From Thaumarchaeota archaeon UBA223 (lineage in GTDB: Archaea; Thermoproteota; Nitrososphaeria; Nitrososphaerales; UBA57): DNA of 64,000 nt. The position numbers were made by a program, and so were the translations under genes. How positions within the stretch are numbered: position 1 is the stretch's first letter; each line of letters starts with the position of its first letter. Below are positions 7,101 through 32,601 of the stretch, one piece after another. The notes below the pieces were generated by a model. That model saw nothing but the letters and a program-made list of their open reading frames with translations, was not told the origin of the DNA and did no database searches. The stretch spans positions 1,008 to 65,007 of the forward strand of contig DAHJ01000022.1 in NCBI GenBank assembly GCA_002495905.1. The letters are read 5' to 3'.

Positions 7101-8267
7101 TTACTTAGAATGATTTTTTATGAGGATTTTGAGATCTTTAAGAAAATTATCAACATGTTTACGATTTATGTGTGGCATTGAGACAAATCGAATATGCGTT
7201 GGGAATATAGATATAGACCAACCTTTTTGTCGAAGAGCTTTAACAATTAATCTATGATTATAATTAATCTTGAATCCAACAATATTTAGAGTAGGTTTGT
7301 TGATTATTGTGATGTTGGGTATTTTTAATAATTCATTATAAAGATAATTCGTATTATTCATACAACGAACAGCAGTTTTACGATAACCAAGTTGACCATG
7401 AAAGTTTAGAAGAGTCCAAAGAGAAATAATTGATGCGCCAGGACTTGTACCAAGTAAAGTAGGTCGAGGTTCATTTCCTCCAGATAAATAACCAACATTA
7501 ATTTTTATATCGCGGATTAAATTTTTATTGCGAAAGAGAATACAACTTGATGGAATAGGAGCAGAACCCATTTTATGTGAATCAAGGCTGATGGAAGTGA
7601 CTCCAGGGAATTTGAAAGAATAAAGAGGTAAATCATAATTACTGTCTTTAAGAAAAGGAATAATAAAACCACCAAAAGAAGCGTCAATATGAAGTAATAT
7701 AGAATTATCACGTGCAATATCAGATAATTCAGGAATAGGATCAATCAATCCAAGTGGAGTAGTACCAGCCACGCCAACAATCATTATAGTATTTTGATTT
7801 ATTCGTTTTTCAAGAGAATTACAGTCAACAATACCATCAAGACAGGGTATTTTTACCAATTTAATACCAAGAAGATCAGCAGCTTTGTCAAAAGAATGAT
7901 GAGAATGGGATGGAATTAATACTTCTGGATGTTTTTGATTGGAATAATTACGAGCAGACCACATAGACATAATATTTGCTTCAGTACCGCCAGAAACAAC
8001 AAATCCACTACAACGGGGATAGAAAAGTAATTTTCCAAGTTGATGAATTATTTGTTTTTCAAGCAATAGAGTTCCTTTGAATAAACCTGGATCACCGATA
8101 TTTTTTTCAAGAAATTTAGAATAAATATATTTAGAATAAGAATCAGGTTCAGTACACATAGAACCAATAATTTTGCCTGAAGTAAAGGTTTCGTCAAGAG
8201 ATAATAAAGAATTTAATTTTTTAGATATTTCATTTTTAGTGAGGCCATATTCATTCATTAACATCAC
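7101..8267 (-). CDS. mfnA: PLP-dependent group II decarboxylase (MfnA-like), probably the aspartate decarboxylase making beta-alanine for CoA
   Basis: 388 aa. The PLP-lysine motif is SLDSHKMG. SGGTEANI and the overall pattern match the archaeal tyrosine/aspartate decarboxylase family. It is the last gene of the PoK-PPS-panB string. Confidence 0.8.
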   Translation of the reverse strand: MMLMNEYGLTKNEISKKLNSLLSLDETFTSGKIIGSMCTEPDSYSKYIYSKFLEKNIGDPGLFKGTLLLEKQIIHQLGKLLFYPRCSGFVVSGGTEANIMSMWSARNYSNQKHPEVLIPSHSHHSFDKAADLLGIKLVKIPCLDGIVDCNSLEKRINQNTIMIVGVAGTTPLGLIDPIPELSDIARDNSILLHIDASFGGFIIPFLKDSNYDLPLYSFKFPGVTSISLDSHKMGSAPIPSSCILFRNKNLIRDIKINVGYLSGGNEPRPTLLGTSPGASIISLWTLLNFHGQLGYRKTAVRCMNNTNYLYNELLKIPNITIINKPTLNIVGFKINYNHRLIVKALRQKGWSISIFPTHIRFVSMPHINRKHVDNFLKDLKILIKNHSK

Positions 8268-9149: not shown

Positions 9150-9911
9150 TTAAGTAGACAAATCTATTAATCTTTTAGACATGAATCGTAGTATTAATTG
9201 TAATTGTTTTTGATTATTGAATTTGTTTACTATTTTTTGAAGGTCGTCGAGTGAAAGATTTGACATATTTTCTGATTGATTAACCATTTCAGGAATGACA
9301 CGAATTATATTATCAATAATACTAATATCAGACATAATTGAAGTACGAGATAGTGGATTTAAATCAACAGTAATTACTGTTTTATTCATTTTTTTCAAGA
9401 ATTCAGTTCTATCGCCATCTTCTAATGGAACAAAAATTACATCGGCAGAAAATATTCCTCTTTTATCAATAAATTTTCGATCACTTTTTAGATTAGGAAT
9501 CTGAGTAAGAAATTTTTTATTTATACCATAAATATCCATAGCGCCATGATTTTTCAATAATTGAGAAATCTTCTTTGCCCTAGTTGAACTTTTATGGAAT
9601 AGATTGATTTCAATTTTTGAATTAGTTAATTTAGCTAAATTAACTAATTCTTTAGAACATAAAGCAGCAGAATTTCCATTAACAGAAATTACAGAATTAG
9701 ATAATAGTAACAATGCAGTTGCAACCCGAATTGTTTTGAGTGAAATTTTATTGGTAGTTTCTCCTAAGATATAATCAAATGCTTCACCACGGCCATGGGC
9801 AATTAAACCGTATTGAGAAAGGATACCAGAGTCGTAAGAATCAATCATCGTATTTCTAATCTTAAGTGAATGGGCACGAGGATGATCTTTAGGAATATTA
9901 TGTTTAGTCAA
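9150..9911 (-). CDS. 4-phosphopantoate--beta-alanine ligase (archaeal phosphopantothenate synthetase, PPS)
   Basis: IPKDHPRAHSL... and HGRGEAFDYILGE are family hallmarks. The track ORF extends to 10037 with a hydrophobic, low-complexity N-terminus overlapping the upstream gene. I place the start at the TTG at 9911, which overlaps the PoK stop (ATTGACTAA). Confidence 0.8.
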   Translation of the reverse strand: MTKHNIPKDHPRAHSLKIRNTMIDSYDSGILSQYGLIAHGRGEAFDYILGETTNKISLKTIRVATALLLLSNSVISVNGNSAALCSKELVNLAKLTNSKIEINLFHKSSTRAKKISQLLKNHGAMDIYGINKKFLTQIPNLKSDRKFIDKRGIFSADVIFVPLEDGDRTEFLKKMNKTVITVDLNPLSRTSIMSDISIIDNIIRVIPEMVNQSENMSNLSLDDLQKIVNKFNNQKQLQLILRFMSKRLIDLST

Positions 9912-10803
9912 TGACTCTTGCTCCTGTATGATTAATTGGAGAGAACAAAATATGACCAGTAATATTAGATTTGAGGAATAAATTATAAAATTCATTAGTT
10001 TCATTAACATTAAGAATAGAGAAAAGTGAATTGCCAAACAGATTCATACTACAAGTCATATCAAATCTATCAGCAAGTTTCATAAATTTATAAAATTCTG
10101 ATGGAAAGAAATTAATTTGTAAAGAGAAGTTTCTAGATAATTCCAAGAATTTATCAGGACTAGGATCATTAGTTAAATGTTGTAAAGAATTTTTACCAGC
10201 CATATTAATTAATTTAATTAGTTTCTGATTATTTAGAATATTAGAAGTGGACAATGAACCTGAAGTAAAGGATACTACAACTTTATTATTGCCAACGGGA
10301 ATTTGTCTAACTTTACCAATTCCTGGAGCGCCTGGATGGGAACGAATTTGTACACCTCCATGATATGCGCCTAAAACAGTTCCTAAACCTGTTCTGCAAT
10401 AGATTTCAGCAATGTGAGCTTTCTGAGCTGCTTCAGTTTTAGTAAAACCAAGATTAAGTAATTCATTAAGCGCATAAGAAAGACTAAGTGCAGAAGAACC
10501 ACTAGAACCATATCCAGATAGAATCGGAATATTGACAAAATGATTAATGACAATTTCATGTTGGAAATTTGAGTGGTTAATCATTTGATTTACAACGGAT
10601 TTAGAAACAATGGCATTGGGATAAGGTACTCCATTGATATTAATTCTTAATTTGAATTTATTAGAAGGTAAAGCATCAACAGTAGTCTCAACACCTTTTT
10701 CAAGACAAACACCTGCTCCAGTAGAACCAGTTAATAATTGATTTTTTGAATGATTAACTTTAAAGAAACCTGTAATGTAGCCGGGAGAAAATGAAGTAAT
10801 CAA
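9904..10803 (-). CDS. pantoate kinase (archaeal PoK, GHMP kinase family)
   Basis: 299 aa. The GHMP motif is SGYGSSGSSALSLSYAL. The gene is adjacent and translationally coupled to PPS. Confidence 0.8.
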   Translation of the reverse strand: MITSFSPGYITGFFKVNHSKNQLLTGSTGAGVCLEKGVETTVDALPSNKFKLRININGVPYPNAIVSKSVVNQMINHSNFQHEIVINHFVNIPILSGYGSSGSSALSLSYALNELLNLGFTKTEAAQKAHIAEIYCRTGLGTVLGAYHGGVQIRSHPGAPGIGKVRQIPVGNNKVVVSFTSGSLSTSNILNNQKLIKLINMAGKNSLQHLTNDPSPDKFLELSRNFSLQINFFPSEFYKFMKLADRFDMTCSMNLFGNSLFSILNVNETNEFYNLFLKSNITGHILFSPINHTGARVID

Positions 10804-15940: not shown

Positions 15941-16666
15941 ATGAATGACTATTTTGCCAATATTAGCGGATTTGAATTATTAGATCATAAAAAACAAAGA
16001 AAGATAACAAGGCATAAAACAGGATTAAAGGAACTAGATGTGGTTACATATGGATTTCCAACAGGTACAATTATAGATTTGTTTGGACCCAATTCTTCAG
16101 GTAAATCACAAATCTTATTCCAAACAGCGGTAAATACATCAATTAAGAATAAAAAAATTCTATTTATTGATTCATCAGGAAATTTTCGACCTGAAAGAAT
16201 TATTCAACTCAGTGAAGCAAAGAATTATGATTCCAAACTAGTCTTGGATAATATTTACACTTATAGATGTAATTCGTTAGATAAACAATTAGAAACTATT
16301 TCTATGATTAAGGAATTTATTGACAACAACAAAATAACTTGTGTAATGATAGATGATTTAACAAGGAATTTTACTGAACATCAATTTGAATTAAAGAATG
16401 AGATGCGTAATATATTAAGAAGTTATATTAGAGAACTATCAGATTTAGCATGGAATAGAAATATTGCAATAATAACAACAAATACTATAAGAGCAAGAAT
16501 TGACAATTCAAACTTGAAAGAACATGAAACATATGATTTCTTAATAAATAGACTAATACATCTGAAAGTTAGTTTAAAAAGAATGGATGACATATGGTTA
16601 GCAAGAAATAATGATGGAAAACAATGTATTTTTAATATTTCAAAAGAGGGGATAGGTAAAGTCTAA
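15941..16666 (+). CDS. RadB-like RecA-superfamily ATPase (Rad51/RadA paralog)
   Basis: 241 aa. Walker A is LFGPNSSGKSQ and Walker B-like is CVMIDDL. The size and single-domain layout are typical of archaeal RadB-type paralogs. Confidence 0.65.
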   Translation: MNDYFANISGFELLDHKKQRKITRHKTGLKELDVVTYGFPTGTIIDLFGPNSSGKSQILFQTAVNTSIKNKKILFIDSSGNFRPERIIQLSEAKNYDSKLVLDNIYTYRCNSLDKQLETISMIKEFIDNNKITCVMIDDLTRNFTEHQFELKNEMRNILRSYIRELSDLAWNRNIAIITTNTIRARIDNSNLKEHETYDFLINRLIHLKVSLKRMDDIWLARNNDGKQCIFNISKEGIGKV

Positions 16667-21665: not shown

Positions 21666-22541
21666 TTATTTTTTGTTAGAAAATTTCTTTTCTAATTTGA
21701 TTAATTCATCGTAATTAACAATTTTATTAAATTTATCAAAAGGTATTAACTGGTCTTCAATTCCAACTGAAGTTTGATGTTTTTTAAGGTAAGATAAGGA
21801 ATCAAATATAGCTTTAGCAGACGAGTATAATGATGTTAAAGGAAATAAAATGATTTTGAATCCAATATTTTTTGCCTCTTCCATTGTAATTAAGGGAGTA
21901 CTTCCTCCTTCAAGTTGATTTAATAATAAAGGTAATTTTACTTGTTTTGCAATAAGTTCTAGTTCATCAATTTTATTAGGAGCTTCGATGAATAATACGT
22001 CCGCACCTGCTTTATGATAACGTTTGACTCTATCGATAGCTTGTTCGACACCTTCAATAGCAAGACTGTCAGTACGGCCAACAATAACCAGATCAGATTT
22101 TTCTTCTTTACGACTTTGTGATGCAGCTTTTATTTTAGATTCCATTTCATCTATTGGAATAACCGCTTTACCTTTCATATGTCCGCATTTTTTTGGCCAT
22201 ACTTGATCTTCTAAAATAAGTCCTGAAGCACCAGAACGAATGTAATCTTTAACAGTTCTCATAGTATTCAAAGAATTTCCATATCCAGTATCAGCATCGG
22301 CAACTACAGGAATATCAATGGAATTGCAAATATTAGAAACTCTTTCTTTCATTTCAGAGAAGCTTACTAAACCTATATCAGGGACCCCTAGTAGAGTTGC
22401 AGCAGTACCATAACCTGTATGAAAAACTGCTTTAAATCCAACTTGTTGTGCAATTTTCGCACTTAATGCATCATATATTCCAGGTACCAATATGGGTTCA
22501 TTAGTTTCAAGAAGTTTACGTAAAGAGTTCGGTTTACCCAT
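21666..22541 (-). CDS. isocitrate lyase/PEP mutase superfamily enzyme, methylisocitrate-lyase-like
   Basis: 291 aa. DADTGYG and EDQVWPKKCGHMKGK are present. The KKCGH signature marks the lyase branch rather than the EDK...NS motif of true PEP mutases. Confidence 0.75.
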   Translation of the reverse strand: MGKPNSLRKLLETNEPILVPGIYDALSAKIAQQVGFKAVFHTGYGTAATLLGVPDIGLVSFSEMKERVSNICNSIDIPVVADADTGYGNSLNTMRTVKDYIRSGASGLILEDQVWPKKCGHMKGKAVIPIDEMESKIKAASQSRKEEKSDLVIVGRTDSLAIEGVEQAIDRVKRYHKAGADVLFIEAPNKIDELELIAKQVKLPLLLNQLEGGSTPLITMEEAKNIGFKIILFPLTSLYSSAKAIFDSLSYLKKHQTSVGIEDQLIPFDKFNKIVNYDELIKLEKKFSNKK

Positions 22542-26124: not shown

Positions 26125-26928
26125 TTAACTTTCAATTGGGAGATCTTCTCTAGTACTCCAATCGGCAAATGATCTGTCATAAATTTTAACATTATCATAT
26201 CCGCATATTTGTAATGCTACAAAAGTATGAGAAGCTCTTTCTCCAACTTGGCAATAACAAATTATTTCTTTATCTTTAGTAATTCCAGACTCTTCAAAGA
26301 GACTATTCATCTGTTCTAGATCTTTGAAAATATAACCTTCGTTACCTACTGCAATTTCCCAAGGAAAGTTTTTGGAGTTTGGAATCCTACCCGATTTAGG
26401 TCCTGCTGCAATGATTCCATTAAATTCTTCAGGACTGCGAGTATCAACCAATACAGAATTAGAATCATTGATTTTAGATAGTACATATTCATGATCAACT
26501 TTGAAATCAAGTTGAGATTGATTAATAATAAAATTAGAATTTTCAATTATTTCAACTTTATCAGTAACAGGATATCCTAATGACATCCATTTAGAGAAAC
26601 TAATATCAAGAAATTGAACAGTGAGGCCATAATACGCAAGAGACCAGAATAAGCGGGCTGCAGTAGCACCTCCTCGATCACCGCATATTATAAGCGTAGA
26701 TTCGTTTTTTATACCAAGAATACTAAGTAATTCTTCTATTTGTTCCTTAGAAGCCAAGTCAAAATATGATGTAGAATCGGTAAAACTCAAGATTTTATCA
26801 TAAGGAACGAGTCTAGAATTAGGAATATGAGCAGAATTGTATTCACGAGGGGAACGAATATCAAGTACTACAAAATTAGGATCATTAAGATTTTCTTTTA
26901 ACCATAGAGAATCCAATAAAATAGACAT
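26125..26928 (-). CDS. two-domain rhodanese sulfurtransferase
   Basis: 267 aa. Domain 1 has the loop IICGDRGGATAAR and domain 2 has the catalytic loop CYCQVGERASH. There is a conserved Trp near the C-terminus (FADWS). Confidence 0.88.
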   Translation of the reverse strand: MSILLDSLWLKENLNDPNFVVLDIRSPREYNSAHIPNSRLVPYDKILSFTDSTSYFDLASKEQIEELLSILGIKNESTLIICGDRGGATAARLFWSLAYYGLTVQFLDISFSKWMSLGYPVTDKVEIIENSNFIINQSQLDFKVDHEYVLSKINDSNSVLVDTRSPEEFNGIIAAGPKSGRIPNSKNFPWEIAVGNEGYIFKDLEQMNSLFEESGITKDKEIICYCQVGERASHTFVALQICGYDNVKIYDRSFADWSTREDLPIES

Positions 26929-26930
26929 AA

Positions 26931-27173
26931 TTATTTTTTCCTCAAAATAAATTTAAAGTAATTATCTTCTTCATTAATCTCAATAATTTCATGGCCTACA
27001 CGATTAGCCCATGCAGGGATATCTTCTTTAGATGCAGGATCAGTAGCTGAAATTTCAAGAACTTGTCCACTTTCCATTTTAGAAATAAATTGCTTAGTTT
27101 TAAGAACAGGGATAGGACAAACTAAACCTTTAACATCAAGAGATTGATCGATTTTCAAAGAAAGATTCACCAA
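26931..27173 (-). CDS. TusA/SirA/YedF-like sulfur carrier
   Basis: 80 aa. LDVKGLVCPIPVLKTK carries the CPxP motif. The start at 27173 is TTG. Confidence 0.85.
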   Translation of the reverse strand: MVNLSLKIDQSLDVKGLVCPIPVLKTKQFISKMESGQVLEISATDPASKEDIPAWANRVGHEIIEINEEDNYFKFILRKK

Positions 27174-27181
27174 ATAAACGA

Positions 27182-27427
27182 TTAGTTATTGTTATTTTTT
27201 ATAGAAATTTTAAAAACTCCTTCGTCAGTTTCTTCGGAGCTAAGAACTTCATGTCCATCTTTTTTAACAGCTGAAGGAATATTTATTGTAGAAGGTAGAT
27301 GATCAACTGTGACTTCCAATATTTCTCCGTCTTCTAATTTTTTAAGTTCTTTAACAGTATTAATTACTGGCCAAGGACATACTTGTCCAATAAGATCGAG
27401 TTTCTTACTTTGTTGTTGCATAATCAT
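27182..27427 (-). CDS. TusA/SirA/YedF-like sulfur carrier
   Basis: 81 aa. LDLIGQVCPWPVINTVKE carries the CPxP motif. It overlaps the upstream SelD-like gene by 4 nt. Confidence 0.85.
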   Translation of the reverse strand: MIMQQQSKKLDLIGQVCPWPVINTVKELKKLEDGEILEVTVDHLPSTINIPSAVKKDGHEVLSSEETDEGVFKISIKNNNN

Positions 27428-28854
27428 TCATTCCCTATAGTCAATTGATTTAATAATACATCAGATGCAATCATATCATTTACGTCTTTCGAAATTTTTA
27501 CTGTGCCGTTTCCTTTCCCTAAAACAGTACCGATAACATGTGGATCATAACCTGATGATTTAAGTTCAGAGCTAATATTTGATATAATATTAGGAGAAGC
27601 AATTACTGCAACAGCTCCATTTGTACCTGCAGTAGCATTATCCATAAGAAAGTTATCAGTAGCATATTTAACAAATTCAGGATAACGTAAAGGAAGATTG
27701 TCAAGAGAGATATCAACCCCTGCATTATTTGCATGTTCTTTGAATATCATTATACCAGGACCAGATAGATCACCTGTAGCTAAAACATGTTCATTTATAT
27801 CAAAAGAACTTCCAAATTCAGGTAAATACTTGTTAATAATCTCTGCAACCTTCAAATTAGGTTGGTTCATAGTACTAATAACAGAATTTTTAGCGTTTTG
27901 AACGTCGTTAAGAGAATAACCAGTTTTTTCTAAGTCTTGAAGAAATGTTTCGTCAGCAACGCAGGACAAGAATACATTAATTGGAGCTAAATCTCCAAAA
28001 GGTCTAGTAACCAAGATTTGCATTCCAGTATCTAGAAGATCAAGTTTAGTAGGAGGTTCCTTTCGAAGAGTACCAAAAAGTGTGGCTCCAATCAATAGCT
28101 TTCCACGTTGTGGTGATTCGGAAGGAAGTAATTCAATACCATATTGATTAGCAAATGTTTTCATATTTTTAGAAATATTATTTTGAATTTCTTCATTTGG
28201 TGCATCGACAACTGGAGAAACTTTTAATTCTTCATAACAACCAAGAGAAATTAAATCATTAAGTGAATTTGATATAGCAACATTAGTCTGTTGTTCAGAA
28301 GATGGATCAGCAGTCGGATCAATAATTTGAATAGTATCATTATTAGATAGGCACCAGCCATCAGATCGTCCTTCTTCATAGGAAATAAAGTCAAATAATG
28401 CAAATTCAGCTTCTGGAAAACCGGTAATAATTGAATGTCCTTTTCCAACAGCAAAATGAACATCAGATTTAGATATTGATGTGTAAAGAGTGTCCAATAA
28501 TGCTTGGAATTTTTCTTGTTTTTCGGCATTTTTCTGAAATACTTGTAATAAAGAAATAGCACGCTTAGGATTGATTTGTTTTAAGTCATCGAGATCAATT
28601 TGTGGATCTGAAGGATTGTAAATTCTACGAGTAATAGTTGGTCCATCTCCAGTTAATGGAAATATATCAGCATCAACACGTTCGCCTAAAGATATTCCCA
28701 TTTGTTTAAGTCGAGGTTTTAGATTATGTAAACTAGGATAAACAACAGTGTCAAGATCTACTTTAACAGCACATCCTGCAACCCATCGAAGTGGATCCAT
28801 TCCCATTTCTCTATATTTGGAAACATTGTCCCAAAATTCTTGTTTTGTACTCAA
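27424..28854 (-). CDS. atypical long SelD-like (selenide/water dikinase-like) PurM-superfamily protein
   Basis: N-terminal WVAGCAVKVD resembles the SelD G-x-G-C-x-x-K loop. QQTNVAISNSLNDLISLG, GMQILVTRPFG and ATGDLSGPGIMIF...AGVD align by eye to SelD blocks. The start is uncertain: the track says 28959, which overlaps the divergent gene. I prefer the TTG at 28854; ATGs occur at 28806 and 28800. Confidence 0.65.
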   Translation of the reverse strand: MSTKQEFWDNVSKYREMGMDPLRWVAGCAVKVDLDTVVYPSLHNLKPRLKQMGISLGERVDADIFPLTGDGPTITRRIYNPSDPQIDLDDLKQINPKRAISLLQVFQKNAEKQEKFQALLDTLYTSISKSDVHFAVGKGHSIITGFPEAEFALFDFISYEEGRSDGWCLSNNDTIQIIDPTADPSSEQQTNVAISNSLNDLISLGCYEELKVSPVVDAPNEEIQNNISKNMKTFANQYGIELLPSESPQRGKLLIGATLFGTLRKEPPTKLDLLDTGMQILVTRPFGDLAPINVFLSCVADETFLQDLEKTGYSLNDVQNAKNSVISTMNQPNLKVAEIINKYLPEFGSSFDINEHVLATGDLSGPGIMIFKEHANNAGVDISLDNLPLRYPEFVKYATDNFLMDNATAGTNGAVAVIASPNIISNISSELKSSGYDPHVIGTVLGKGNGTVKISKDVNDMIASDVLLNQLTIGNE

Positions 28855-28921
28855 TGTAAAACAATTAATCGAATGTCGAAAGATATATAAATATAACGGC
28901 ATTATAAAATATCGATATAAG

Positions 28922-30136
28922 ATGTCAGATACAACAGTAAATAGAAGAGATTTCATCAAGTATATCGGGGGAGCTGCTGTAGGTTTAGGAATAGGAGGAG
29001 CAGGTTATCTTTCTGCCAATTCCCAAGTAAATACAGTAACAAGTGAACTTGAGAATGCTAATAGTGAACTCGATCAAATAAAAGAAGAACTTAAAGGAAG
29101 AGGACATTTAGGATATGTCTTTGGTGCGGAAGGATCGATTACAACACTTGATCTAGCACGTGGAAAAATCCTAGCTACATCCGGACCAACTTGGATTGCA
29201 GAAGCAGGAAGTATTGATTGGTGTAATCATTTTCCAGATGCTAATGGAAACATATGGGGACTAGTTAGAAAACCAGGTCAAGTAGGATCTACAATTGCAG
29301 TAAATCCAACTACTAATGAATTAGTTCATGATGTTCCATTAGAAGGTAGATGGAGAATAAGATTAGGAGAAACCGATGAAGAAGGAAAATATGGATACAT
29401 GTTAAATGGATATATTGCCGATAAATATGATTCAGAAAAATTCAATGCATCGAGAGATGAATTTGAAATTCCATATGAAGATATAGATCCAGGAGAAATT
29501 CATAAAATCGATCTTCTTAAGGGAGAAGTAGTCGATGTATTACCTGTTCCGAAATTCTGTTGTGATGTTGCAATAGCGCCAGATGGCAAATTATGGCTCG
29601 TAAATCAATTAGAGAGTTTGATTTCAGTAGTAGATACAAAGACATTCACAATTGAAGAACATTTAGCTACAGAATACTCTGACTATGGTGCAAGTATGAT
29701 AACAATTTCGCCTAACAATGATGTTGCATTTATCGAAGTAAATTCAGCAGGAAATTGGTCGAATGCAGGTGGATTCAAAAACTTTGATCCAATCGAGATG
29801 GTATGGGACATTAAAAATAAAGAAATGATAAAAGAATTTCCATTAGAAGCAGGTCCTCGTACTAGTGAATTTACACCAGATGGAAAATACTGTGTTGTTA
29901 GAACCAGACCAGCATCAATAGTATATGATGTTGAGAATTTGAGTGAAGTAAGAAAGATAGAAGTTGAGAACACTGGACACCCAGCTTTTAGTCCTGACAG
30001 CACTCTTGCATATATACCAAACCCTGGAAACAGTTCAATTGACGTATTTGAAGTTGGATCTTGGAAAGAGGTAGATAGTTTGAAAGTGCCTTATTCACCA
30101 TCAAAGATTGTTCCAATCAACACAAACAACTACTAA
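28922..30136 (+). CDS. Tat-signal YVTN-type beta-propeller protein
   Basis: The ATG at 28922 gives MSDTTVNRRDFIKYIGGAAVGLGIGGAG, a twin-arginine motif plus h-region. A short coiled segment follows, then repeated ...P.G...(Y/F)V.N...S.(I/V)SV(I/V)D-like blades (e.g. FSPDSTLAYIPNPGNSSIDVFEV). The track ORF start at 28748 is an upstream extension. Confidence 0.7.
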   Translation: MSDTTVNRRDFIKYIGGAAVGLGIGGAGYLSANSQVNTVTSELENANSELDQIKEELKGRGHLGYVFGAEGSITTLDLARGKILATSGPTWIAEAGSIDWCNHFPDANGNIWGLVRKPGQVGSTIAVNPTTNELVHDVPLEGRWRIRLGETDEEGKYGYMLNGYIADKYDSEKFNASRDEFEIPYEDIDPGEIHKIDLLKGEVVDVLPVPKFCCDVAIAPDGKLWLVNQLESLISVVDTKTFTIEEHLATEYSDYGASMITISPNNDVAFIEVNSAGNWSNAGGFKNFDPIEMVWDIKNKEMIKEFPLEAGPRTSEFTPDGKYCVVRTRPASIVYDVENLSEVRKIEVENTGHPAFSPDSTLAYIPNPGNSSIDVFEVGSWKEVDSLKVPYSPSKIVPINTNNY

Positions 30137-30145
30137 GTGGAATAG

Positions 30146-31216
30146 TTGTCAGAACAAGATAATCAAAGGATGCTATTAGTTAGCGCAATAATAACAGCGC
30201 TAACAATAGGTTTTTTGATTGGAGGAACTTTTGTTTATCATACAACCAAAGAAGTAGAAGTTGAACAATATCAAGCAGTAGTGTTCAACACTATTGGTAA
30301 AACAGCAACTGTAATAGACAATCATCTTCTTACTAGTTTAACAAACATCAATATTGAGATAGAAGAGGGTCAATATGGCGCACATTATAATGAAAAGAAT
30401 AACAAATTATATCTTATTCATGATGGTGAATCGGAATTGTTAACATTAGATCCACAATCACTAATAATACAATCAAGGGTTAGAGTGGGTCCAAATCTTC
30501 AACATGCAGGAATATTTGATGATAAAGGAGAGATATTTTTCTTAATCAGTAGAGATTCGAATTCATTGGTAATGATCAATACAACGACAGACAGGATAAT
30601 ATCAAGAATTGAAGTGCAAGAACAACCGCATCATGTAGCGTTGTTAGAAGATTCTGTTGCAGTTACAAATACAGAATCACAATCAATATCCATTGTAGAT
30701 CTCAAAGAATTAGAAGTAGTCAATAACATAAAGATTGATGCAGAACCTTTAATGATAGTATCAGATAATAATGAAAGAATTTTTGTTGGTGCAATAAGAC
30801 CTGCAAAGCTATTTTTCATAGATAATTATGAAGTAAAAAATAGTATTAATTTAGAATCAGATCCACACGGAATGGCATTAACTGGAGATGGAGAAAACAT
30901 CATTGTGACATTACCTGAAGAAAACAAGGTTTTGATTATAAGTATGAAGGGAGAGGTAATTAAGGAGCTGAAAACAGGGGATTTTCCTCATAATATCGAT
31001 ATTGAACCTAACGGAAACTATGGATATATCAGCAATAGTAATGATGCCACTGTATCTGTAATTGATTTGATTAAGTTCGAGATTGTTGCAACAATAGAAA
31101 CAGGAAATGGTTCTCATAATGTGCAATTTTACAACATAATGAACAGTAATACAGAATTAAACGTCGCAAAAGATGATTCAAAAATTGTTAGTGCGAATTT
31201 TAATTGTGGAGGTTAG
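30146..31216 (+). CDS. N-terminally membrane-anchored YVTN-type beta-propeller protein
   Basis: 356 aa. TM LLVSAIITALTIGFLIGGTFVY is followed by repeated blades (NSLVMINTTTDRII, SQSISIVDLKELEVV, NKVLIISMKGEVI, NDATVSVIDLIKFEIV). The start is TTG, with an alternative ATG at 30170. Confidence 0.7.
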   Translation: MSEQDNQRMLLVSAIITALTIGFLIGGTFVYHTTKEVEVEQYQAVVFNTIGKTATVIDNHLLTSLTNINIEIEEGQYGAHYNEKNNKLYLIHDGESELLTLDPQSLIIQSRVRVGPNLQHAGIFDDKGEIFFLISRDSNSLVMINTTTDRIISRIEVQEQPHHVALLEDSVAVTNTESQSISIVDLKELEVVNNIKIDAEPLMIVSDNNERIFVGAIRPAKLFFIDNYEVKNSINLESDPHGMALTGDGENIIVTLPEENKVLIISMKGEVIKELKTGDFPHNIDIEPNGNYGYISNSNDATVSVIDLIKFEIVATIETGNGSHNVQFYNIMNSNTELNVAKDDSKIVSANFNCGG

Positions 31217-31219
31217 ATA

Positions 31220-32317
31220 ATGTTAGAATATAATAATATTTTCTCACTTAGTGCAACTTTGCTTATTGGATTAGGATTTGGAATACTTTTACAGAAAGGA
31301 CGTTTCTGTTTTACTAGTGCATTAAGAGATTTTATTGCATTCAAAGATACAAGAGTACTAAATGGAGTAATTATTGGAATTGTAACAATGATGTTGGGTA
31401 CAAGTATAGCATATGTATTAGGGATTTCTAGCTCTAATTTTTGGGTTTCAAATTATGGTCTTTCGAACATAATTGGAGGATTCGTATTTGGAATTGGAAT
31501 GGTCTATGGAGGTGGATGTGCATCAGGTACATTATATCGTGCAGGAGAAGGATACATACATTACTGGTTGGTATTAATTTCAGCTTGTGTAGGATACATA
31601 GCTTTTGCTGCACTATTTCCAGAAATCTTTCTACCATATTTCTTCGTTCCATTACAAATTTTTGATGGTTACAGTGTCATTTCGAGTTTAGAATTATTCT
31701 CGCCGATTGTTCCAGTGTTATTAATTTTCGCATCAGTATTATATTTACGAAATAGAAATAAATTAATTATAAATCAAACAATTCAAAGTCTAAAATTATC
31801 AAATATTTCATCCAATAGTCTCAAGGCAGAATGGGATACAAAATTAGTGGGTGTTGGAATGGGAGTATTAGCAACATTGTGGTTTGTAATCTGGGGAACA
31901 TTAAGTGTGACAGGACCGCAAGCAAGATGGACAGGGTTAGTTTATAGCGAGTTATTTGGAATAGAAACTCTTCAGAACAATATTTACTGGAACAGTGTTG
32001 TATTTCGAGATGGAATATTTTCAATTAGTTTAGACATGATATTATTTATGAGTCTAATTTTTGGAGCATTTATTTCTGCATATTTGAGTGGAGATTTTAA
32101 AATAAGAACGATAAAAACGTCAAGAATTCCGAATGCAGTGATTGGTGGGCTAATAATGGGGTTTGGATCAAGAATGGCTCCAGGATGTAACATCAGTAAC
32201 ACGTTTAGTGGATTGGCATTTTTATCAGTAGCAGGTTTTATAACATCATTAGGTCTATTATTAGGAGTATATGTTGCAACACATTGGATGTTTAGAAAAT
32301 CCGGTTGTGCCATTTAG
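31220..32317 (+). CDS. yeeE: YeeE/YedE-family sulfur-compound (thiosulfate-type) permease
   Basis: 365 aa and polytopic. All three Cys-containing family motifs are present: KGRFCFTSALRDF, GGGCASGTLYRAGEG and PGCNISNTFSG. Confidence 0.88.
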   Translation: MLEYNNIFSLSATLLIGLGFGILLQKGRFCFTSALRDFIAFKDTRVLNGVIIGIVTMMLGTSIAYVLGISSSNFWVSNYGLSNIIGGFVFGIGMVYGGGCASGTLYRAGEGYIHYWLVLISACVGYIAFAALFPEIFLPYFFVPLQIFDGYSVISSLELFSPIVPVLLIFASVLYLRNRNKLIINQTIQSLKLSNISSNSLKAEWDTKLVGVGMGVLATLWFVIWGTLSVTGPQARWTGLVYSELFGIETLQNNIYWNSVVFRDGIFSISLDMILFMSLIFGAFISAYLSGDFKIRTIKTSRIPNAVIGGLIMGFGSRMAPGCNISNTFSGLAFLSVAGFITSLGLLLGVYVATHWMFRKSGCAI

Positions 32318-32322
32318 ATTAG

Positions 32323-32601
32323 GTGAACATGATGGAAGAAAGAACAGTTAATGACGAAGATTTGAAAGAAATTGAACAGAATGCAGTAATGATCGATATG
32401 GAGGGAGAAGTATGTCCTTATCCACAGATTATTGCACGAGAAGAAATAAAAAAGATTGAATCTGGGAAAATTGTAGTGATAAAAACGGATCACGTAATGG
32501 CAACAAAAGCTGTTCCTCAATCAGTGAGTAATGATGTTTCATATTTTGGGATATGGAAATCAGGTTCAGGTCAGTATAAAATAATACTATGGAAGAAATA
32601 A
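32323..32601 (+). CDS. TusA/YedF-like sulfur carrier (YeeE partner)
   Basis: 92 aa. IDMEGEVCPYPQIIAREE carries the CPxP motif. It begins 6 nt after yeeE. The track start is GTG, with an ATG 2 codons downstream. Confidence 0.8.
   Translation: MNMMEERTVNDEDLKEIEQNAVMIDMEGEVCPYPQIIAREEIKKIESGKIVVIKTDHVMATKAVPQSVSNDVSYFGIWKSGSGQYKIILWKK

Follow-up and report, generated by a model that had tools for sequence, protein, structure and literature searches.

A 64,000-nucleotide stretch of contig DAHJ01000022.1 from Thaumarchaeota archaeon UBA223 (32% GC; this whole stretch is hereafter called the window) carries a gene for a protein resembling selenide, water dikinase (SelD). We assign this protein, as a new member, to a published, uncharacterised family with a curated model; its host lineage is new for that family. 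By analogy with SelD, it may be a functional ATP-dependent, single-chain enzyme of the PurM superfamily that activates relay-delivered sulfur to a thiophosphate-type donor. We put the probability of this reading at about one half. The gene lies as follows:

27424..28854, minus strand: SelD-like coding sequence, 476 amino acids (aa), TTG start; member of NF038049 (SelD_rel_HyperS).

Residues 6-472 of the protein cover positions 2-464 of the 465 in NCBIfam model NF038049 ("SelD-related putative sulfur metabolism protein"), an end-to-end match (E 1.1e-164; 548.4 bits, cutoff 250). With the model for canonical SelD (PRK14105 / selenide, water dikinase) the score was 34.5 bits (cutoff 291) and only residues 174-459 were covered, on model positions 63-341; the HypE model gave 21.5 bits. 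The 229 homologs recovered at E <= 1e-3 are named "SelD-related putative sulfur metabolism protein", "selenophosphate synthase" or "selenide, water dikinase". Their hosts are Nitrososphaerales, Sulfolobales, Desulfurococcales, Caldisphaera, Vulcanisaeta, Hydrothermarchaeales and metagenome-assembled genomes (MAGs) labelled Halobacteria. A precomputed PF02769 match is present in a minority of them. Searching 1.84 billion cluster representatives returned only 207 relatives at E <= 1e-3, 96 of them at E <= 1e-30, so the family is small. It was described computationally as "SelD-like" by Li et al. in 2014, who proposed a thiophosphate compound as its product and reported SirA/TusA, "Prx-like" COG2210 and rhodanese proteins as neighbours, together with an acylphosphatase fusion in Thermoproteales (PMC4210487). 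The family was then thought to be restricted to Sulfolobales and Thermoproteales and was reported absent from bacteria. The text of that paper makes no mention of an insertion, a duplicated N-type module or a GKGHS motif (PMC4210487).

A first-pass annotation of this DNA, made from the sequence alone, had likened the protein to SelD and other PurM-superfamily enzymes. That likeness is correct, far beyond chance: SelD proteins are its nearest relatives in both sequence and structure. The novelty which the annotation implied did not survive, since the protein is a full-length member of a family published in 2014 and close homologs already bear its label. These homologs are thus annotated, a prospect the first pass had raised, but they are uncharacterised and stand, within the superfamily, on the side of SelD.

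The correspondence with SelD was placed by comparing family profiles with a SelD alignment comprising E. coli, five enterics, A. aeolicus and human SPS1, the last two read off Protein Data Bank (PDB) alignments. This alignment is thin (effective number of sequences 2.4), limiting the sensitivity of hhalign; an E. coli SelD query gave only enterobacterial sequences of 77-94% identity. Family alignments contained 36 (A1) or 58 (A2) sequences. Searching the PDB with the single sequence (phmmer) found nothing relevant; the A2 profile reached human SPS1, but only over residues 192-453 (E 9e-7). In hhalign the full family profile aligned residues 187-450 with SelD 75-335 (Prob 96%, E 3e-9). Once residues 68-165 had been excised, the alignment ran from residue 16 to the end on SelD 5-346 (E 1.6e-10; Prob 96-97% across these alignments). 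The open reading frame and all four sequence blocks matched to SelD by eye in the first pass were found where it had placed them, and the corresponding segments are:

28762..28776, minus strand: G27-C28-A-V-K31, the Cys-x-x-Lys loop, counterpart of SelD Cys17/Lys20; invariant in 58 of 58 sequences, CGCxxK in divergent clades.
28666..28680, minus strand: R59-V-D61-A-D63, first Asp strand, counterpart of SelD DDAAV (D51); R59 and D61 invariant, D63 at least 90% conserved.
28315..28344, minus strand: N171-N-D173-T...D179-P, second Asp strand, counterpart of SelD TTD...VDDP (D68) by hhalign; invariant.
28255..28269, minus strand: N196-S-L-N-D200, counterpart of SelD N87/D91 by hhalign; invariant.
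28114..28128, minus strand: L243-P-S-E-S247, degenerate canonical GGHS position by hhalign; unconserved in the family consensus.
27754..27771, minus strand: D362-L-S-G-P-G in the C-domain, counterpart of SelD TDVTGFG (D227); D362, G365 and G367 invariant.

Pairing of the window protein with E. coli SelD by hhalign set G27-C28-x-x-K31 on G16-C17-x-x-K20, D61 on D51, D173 on D68, N196 on N87, D200 on D91 and D362 on D227. TRPFG fell on TKPLG and LLPSES on LAGGHS. C28, K31, D61, D173, N196, D200 and D362 are invariant across the 58 homologs of A2 and are largely kept in clades down to E 1e-26. The match to the SelD NCBIfam model begins only at the second Asp strand (residue 174). The first 72 residues taken alone gave the same register against SelD, at E 0.029 only.

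An AlphaFold2 model of the whole protein had a predicted local distance difference test score (pLDDT) of 92.5 and a predicted template-modelling score (pTM) of 0.91, with the lowest pLDDT in the block that holds the Cys loop. Such low values are consistent with a flexible loop, as in SelD, on the strength of the model. Foldseek ranked SelD structures 1-14 (E 5e-17 to 2e-13), followed by HypE, ThiL and PurM; of 113 PDB matches at E <= 1e-3, the top 50 were all SelD, HypE, ThiL or PurM. Homology of the Cys/Lys pair to SelD Cys17/Lys20, on which the first pass had staked its comparison, is upheld by three features taken together: the shared register, invariance across the family and a place in a flexible, low-pLDDT N-terminal loop.

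The protein is longer than SelD, as first noted (476 aa against 347 aa in E. coli SelD, or +129 aa). The first-pass annotation had set the extra block before the first PurM-type domain; it in fact lies within the N-domain, between the RVDADI strand and the NNDT strand. We term this block, of about 100 residues, the N' module:

28357..28656, minus strand: N' module, residues 67-166, predicted PurM-type N-domain (beta-alpha-beta-alpha-beta-beta) from the isolated model, Foldseek and hhalign.
28429..28446, minus strand: G137-K-G-H140-S-I, GGHS-type motif in N'; aligns to SelD GGHSID (hhalign).

Residues 64-170 modelled alone gave a pLDDT of 90 and a pTM of 0.80. Against the PDB, the top 17 Foldseek matches of this isolated model were all of the PurM superfamily (HypE, SPS1, PurM, ThiL; E 5e-4 to 3e-3, query TM-score <=0.59), with HypE the best. 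FtsZ and TubZ chains ranked lower; SCOP places the C-terminal domains of these proteins in one fold class with the PurM N-domain. With PurM-type structures alone at the top, we rejected the insertion of a foreign domain. Where structure prediction had been suggested in the first pass as a way to see whether the insert is a separate domain, it points instead to a duplicated N-type module. In sequence, the stretch aligned weakly with SelD residues 69-160 (hhalign, E 0.011), with GKGHSI over GGHSID. An hhalign comparison of the insertion with the protein's own residues 166-476 revealed no significant internal repeat (E 0.31). The duplication is thus supported by predicted structure and not by sequence self-similarity.

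Conservation bears on the same motif. In A2, G137, K138, G139, H140 and I142 are invariant and S141 is at least 90% conserved, and [GA]K[GA]H[ST] is retained in nearly all divergent family representatives. The first-pass statement that an obvious GGH motif is missing was half right: the canonical site, which follows the second N-domain helix, is lost and reads LPSES, but the protein does not lack a GGH-type motif, since GKGHS(I) stands at residues 137-142. On the fold matches of N', the GKGHSI/GGHSID alignment and this conservation, we read the protein as N'-N-C, a predicted architecture in which a tandem N-type duplicate keeps a GGHS-type strand no longer present in the canonical copy. SelD itself builds an eight-stranded barrel from the N-domains of two subunits. 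By analogy, K138 and H140 may belong to one active site, with N' acting as the second subunit. The ATP-phosphate-binding residues listed for Leishmania SEPHS2 include Glu173 (PMC7595633). We place this residue in the GGx(S/T) motif by sequence homology with human GGQT and E. coli GGHS, a point on which the paper itself is silent.

Six divergent full-length members (P0252, P0261, P0262, P0267, P0268 and P0271) lack most motifs (K31, GKGHS, NNDT, N..D, TNG). These could be paralogs that have become pseudo-enzymes, or they could partner catalytic copies.

The start codon, left ambiguous in the first pass, was settled on the TTG at 28854. All seven of the closest orthologous loci (L007-L013, 79-97% protein identity) carry an ATG at exactly that codon and share the N-terminal start MSTKQEFWDN from it. 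Initiation at ATG 28806 or 28800 was rejected because both would remove an N-terminal helix conserved even in Sulfolobales, in which Y14 is invariant in A1 and at least 90% conserved in A2. The longer minus-strand frame (27424..28959) was also rejected, because it overlaps the divergent gene (ATG 28925) and would translate a conserved, AT-rich promoter. With TTG at 28852-28854 where the seven closest loci use ATG, translation initiation may be lower in this strain. We recommend that the gene be called from TTG 28854 and named "SelD-related putative sulfur metabolism protein". The 92%-identical P0001 and several public records are named 'selenide, water dikinase' or 'selenophosphate synthase'; such naming is unsupported, as the SelD model cutoff is missed.

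The SelD-like gene heads a tight four-gene operon, SelD-like-TusA-TusA-rhodanese, that is divergent from a unit ending in YeeE-TusA. The two units comprise:

27182..27427, minus strand: TusA-1, 81 aa, CPWP motif; Pfam TusA E 3e-21; start overlaps the SelD-like stop (ATGA).
26931..27173, minus strand: TusA-2, 80 aa, CPIP motif; Pfam TusA E 8e-26.
26125..26928, minus strand: rhodanese sulfurtransferase with tandem domains, closing the operon; Pfam Rhodanese E 3e-33 over two stretches.
28925..30136, plus strand: beta-propeller protein with a twin-arginine signal; TIGR01409, weak propeller matches.
30146..31216, plus strand: YncE-like beta-propeller protein; Pfam YNCE and Cytochrom_D1, NCBIfam beta-propeller repeats.
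31220..32317, plus strand: YeeE/YedE-family membrane transporter (Sulf_transp); Pfam E 3e-54.
32323..32601, plus strand: TusA-3, 92 aa, CPYP motif, partner of YeeE; Pfam TusA E 4e-10.

On NCBIfam models the window YeeE scored 168 bits for YedE/FdhT and 132 bits for TsuA, each below cutoff, and TusA-1 was matched best by YedF, also below cutoff. A jackhmmer search with DsrE seeds found no DsrE-type ("Prx-like" COG2210) gene between 20 and 36 kb of the window; such a neighbour is a matter of context and does not define the family. The two beta-propellers (28925-30136 and 30146-31216) gave weak matches only (YncE, hydrazine synthase beta, L-NosZ, PQQ-associated propeller). Equal spacing to YeeE in L007-L009 and L011-L013, the marine relatives fetched with that flank, makes it probable that both are part of the YeeE unit. 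The genes flanking the cluster are unrelated (UbiA, glycosyltransferases, polysaccharide genes).

Synteny was scored in 86 loci, the window plus 85 fetched, three of which are copies of one contig. TusA lies within 300 bp of the SelD-like gene in 64 of the 86, and TusA, rhodanese or DsrE does so in 72. A YeeE-family gene is found within 1.5 kb in 25 loci and within 3 kb in 35, a DsrE-type gene within 3 kb in only 10, and the collinear order YeeE-TusA-SelD-like occurs in 17. The TusA-TusA-rhodanese arrangement of the window is repeated in L007-L013 and L015. Elsewhere the SelD-like gene neighbours TusA, rhodanese and a NIR_SIR sulfite reductase (L001, Thaumarchaeota), or a rhodanese with a TusA/FCSD-like oxidoreductase/DsrE cluster 2-4 kb off (L003, Sulfolobus). 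In L005, a MAG labelled Halobacteria, a rhodanese gene overlaps it. The order in L004 (Vulcanisaeta) is DsrE-TusA-SelD-like::acylphosphatase-TusA. C-terminal fusions to acylphosphatase (PF00708) give proteins of ~575-580 aa in Vulcanisaeta and relatives (P0081, P0097, P0102, P0106, P0243; L004 7001-8740).

Between the two divergent units lies a short conserved region:

28855..28924, no strand assigned: divergent promoter region, 70 bp; TA-rich run at 28883-28896, near-palindrome ATAAyGsCGTTAT at 28893-28905.

This region is near-identical across L007-L013. Thirteen thaumarchaeal loci, more distant ones included, conserve the core GCCGTTAT at ~45-50 bp before the SelD-like start codon. The near-palindrome ATAACGsCGTTAT is present in the window with one mismatch; the element or its core was noted also in L014, L016, L021, L024 and L035. 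Its lone match in the window is not significant by itself (0.9 expected). L001 holds copies at 7956-7968, 9906-9918 and 16259-16271: the palindrome precedes the SelD-like gene and, 18 bp upstream, the NIR_SIR sulfite reductase gene, and it also occurs in the divergent intergenic region between a gene for an SsuA-like ABC binding protein and ComA. We regard ATAACGsCGTTAT as a candidate operator of a sulfur regulon. That one palindrome is common to the SelD-like and sulfite reductase genes in L001 hints at an assimilatory role.

The hosts also broaden the family. The closest genome matches to the window are marine Nitrososphaerales/Nitrosopumilales MAGs at 92-97% identity, among them Nitrososphaerales ALOHA_A2.5_79 (97%) and uncultured Nitrosopumilales (97%). 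No contig record was found to encode exactly the window protein. Our genome scan further detected the gene in four MAGs labelled Bipolaricaulota/Acetothermia (L061, L065, L080, L085) and on a 406-kb contig labelled Acidobacteriota (L018). Rhodanese, TusA, DsrE or YeeE genes lie nearby in four of these five bacteria-labelled loci, with none detected at L080. Family members in bacteria-labelled MAGs could reflect horizontal transfer or mis-binning. Given the mesophilic marine Nitrososphaerales/Nitrosopumilales carriers and the other MAGs, confinement of the family to sulfur-metabolising hyperthermophiles is too narrow.

How the protein might work can be sketched from these parts. A YeeE-type transporter would bring in reduced or sulfane sulfur, which a persulfide relay would pass from rhodanese to TusA and on to Cys28. 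This putative catalytic Cys and Lys31 would be presented by the flexible N-terminal loop. The N copy would supply the Asp/Asn ligands for ATP and metal (D173, N196, D200), joined by D61 from just upstream of N' and D362 from the C-domain, and N' would contribute the GGHS-type strand (K138, H140) lost from the N copy. Sulfur on Cys28 would then be phosphorylated from the ATP gamma-phosphate, and assimilation or biosynthesis would draw on the resulting thiophosphate-type activated sulfur donor. The substrate and product, the way in which sulfur flows and the active-site place of K138 and H140 are all inferred. A broader and more specific proposal is offered only tentatively: that the family as a whole may consist of thiophosphate (or perthiophosphate) synthetases, fed by YeeE, rhodanese and TusA, with a single-chain N'-N-C pseudo-dimeric PurM fold not described before and active-site motifs split between its two duplicated half-domains.

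Several points weigh against the thiophosphate reading. We know of no acceptor pathway for thiophosphate. The step from persulfide (S0) to thiophosphate (S2-) would also call for a reductant, for which no candidate emerged. A simple SelD-type reaction would leave the acylphosphatase fusion of Thermoproteales unexplained. The alignment of the N-terminal loop is weak by itself (E 0.029), and neither Pfam AIRS (PF00586) nor AIRS_C (PF02769) was detected in the window protein, which had no Pfam match at E <= 0.01. Literature searches for the family and for thiophosphate synthetase/synthase found no experimental work on any member, and a 2026 review still terms the function of the SelD-like family speculative.

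Other functions were weighed on the same evidence. A substrate other than a chalcogen is doubtful; the enzyme would then dehydrate or phosphorylate, in the ATP-dependent manner of HypE, a group on its own Cys or a TusA Cys, or pass through an acyl-phosphate-type intermediate. HypE and ThiL are the next-best structural matches, HypE is the best for N', and the acylphosphatase fusions (P0081, P0097, P0102, P0106) recall HypF, a protein with an acylphosphatase domain and the partner of PurM-fold HypE. However, SelD stands above HypE and ThiL in sequence and structure searches, the context offers no hydrogenase-maturation or thiamine genes, and within the superfamily the N-terminal Cys-x-x-Lys loop is reported only for SelD and SelD-like proteins (PMC4210487). 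Loss of catalysis altogether, leaving a regulatory relative such as animal SPS1 that binds only a nucleotide or a partner, is very improbable indeed: the six degenerate paralogs, devoid of nearly all motifs, give it a precedent in the family, but the window protein retains every family-invariant residue, including Cys28, Lys31, D61, D173, N196, D200 and D362.

Involvement in energy-yielding, dissimilatory sulfur metabolism of sulfur-reducing or -oxidising archaea is implied by the original description and by the HyperS name. Co-occurrence with APS reductase in Thermoproteales and nearby DSR and Fe-S oxidoreductase genes (PMC4210487) fit such a role, as does the TusA/FCSD-like oxidoreductase/DsrE cluster 2-4 kb away in Sulfolobus (L003). 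A purely dissimilatory role for the window member is nonetheless unlikely: it and its nearest relatives, at 79-97% identity, belong to marine Nitrososphaerales/Nitrosopumilales MAGs of 32% GC, the window cluster is without Dsr, Apr, Hdr or Sox genes and has unrelated flanks, and among the partners broad conservation is limited to carriers and a transporter. The L001 neighbour, a sulfite reductase of NIR_SIR type (Pfam NIR_SIR plus NIR_SIR_ferr), is read as assimilatory. It is quite improbable, too, that the protein is a true selenophosphate synthetase for an unrecognised selenium trait, with YeeE/YedE importing selenium species and a YedF-like TusA delivering them. The loop and metal ligands are those of SelD, the window YeeE and TusA-1 score best with YedE/FdhT (168 against 132 bits on TsuA) and YedF, if all below cutoffs, and new SelD-dependent pathways are still emerging, such as a three-gene selenium small-molecule cluster (bioRxiv 10.1101/2022.04.13.486033). 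Set against this, the SelD equivalog model reached 34.5 of the 291 bits required, crenarchaeal carriers were reported to lack all selenium traits known in 2014 (Li et al., PMC4210487), and the cluster, within the 64 kb of genome covered, showed no selA, selB, ybbB, yqeB/C or sen genes. Rhodanese, DsrE and TusA, the partners that are conserved, serve sulfur relay in general, and the promoter motif is common with a sulfite reductase.

Away from the cluster, a PEP mutase / isocitrate lyase family protein is encoded at 21666-22541 on the minus strand (Pfam PEP_mutase, E 1e-49), amid glycosyltransferase genes. Phosphonate biosynthesis in this marine thaumarchaeon is possible.

What this analysis adds to the family is the N' module with its GGHS-type motif, the start codon, the synteny counts, a wider distribution and a candidate sulfur-regulon operator. 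It also provides handles for experiment, namely K138 and H140 as catalytic candidates, the two TusA proteins, rhodanese and YeeE-TusA as natural partners, and members from beyond the hyperthermophiles. If the thiophosphate reading is true, the product would be the sulfur counterpart of selenophosphate, a new activated sulfur donor, and the system a new archaeal entry point for inorganic sulfur, with a bearing on how selenium and sulfur use diverged. Were the synthetase proposal to hold, many archaea and some Bipolaricaulota would gain a route for inorganic sulfur into biomolecules that parallels selenophosphate chemistry.

Compared with the SelD-like family of Li et al., the window protein agrees in its conserved Cys, Lys, Asp and Asn and in having TusA/SirA and rhodanese neighbours. 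Its host differs, being a mesophilic, AT-rich marine member of Nitrososphaerales and not a hyperthermophile of Sulfolobales or Thermoproteales. The window also lacks the DsrE-like neighbour and the acylphosphatase fusion, and adds a YeeE-TusA unit and two beta-propellers. With SelD/SEPHS the protein shares PurM-type N and C domains, a flexible G-C-x-x-K loop and Asp/Asn ligands in the same order; unlike SelD, it is ~129 aa longer through a predicted tandem second N-type module, and its GGH(S/T)-type motif has moved to N'. As in PurL (FGAM synthetase), a single chain would hold two N-type domains through internal duplication; in PurL the N-N barrel, homodimeric in other members, forms within one polypeptide. 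PurL, however, duplicates the N-C unit (N1-C1-N2-C2), whereas the window protein duplicates the N-type module only, and in sequence the two are related at the level of the superfamily only. HypE has the same fold and acts with ATP on a group borne by a Cys thiol, but its reactive Cys is C-terminal and it has no N-terminal Cys-x-x-Lys loop. The window arrangement of a YeeE-family gene followed at once by a TusA-like gene resembles YeeE/YeeD (TsuA/TsuB), a thiosulfate uptake pair shown experimentally, in which a Cys of the TusA-like YeeD becomes modified (PMC11073785). Bacterial YeeE/YeeD has no SelD-like partner, and the window YeeE falls below the TsuA cutoffs. Taken as a set, the YeeE, TusA and SelD-like triad mirrors YedE, YedF and SelD of bacterial selenium metabolism.

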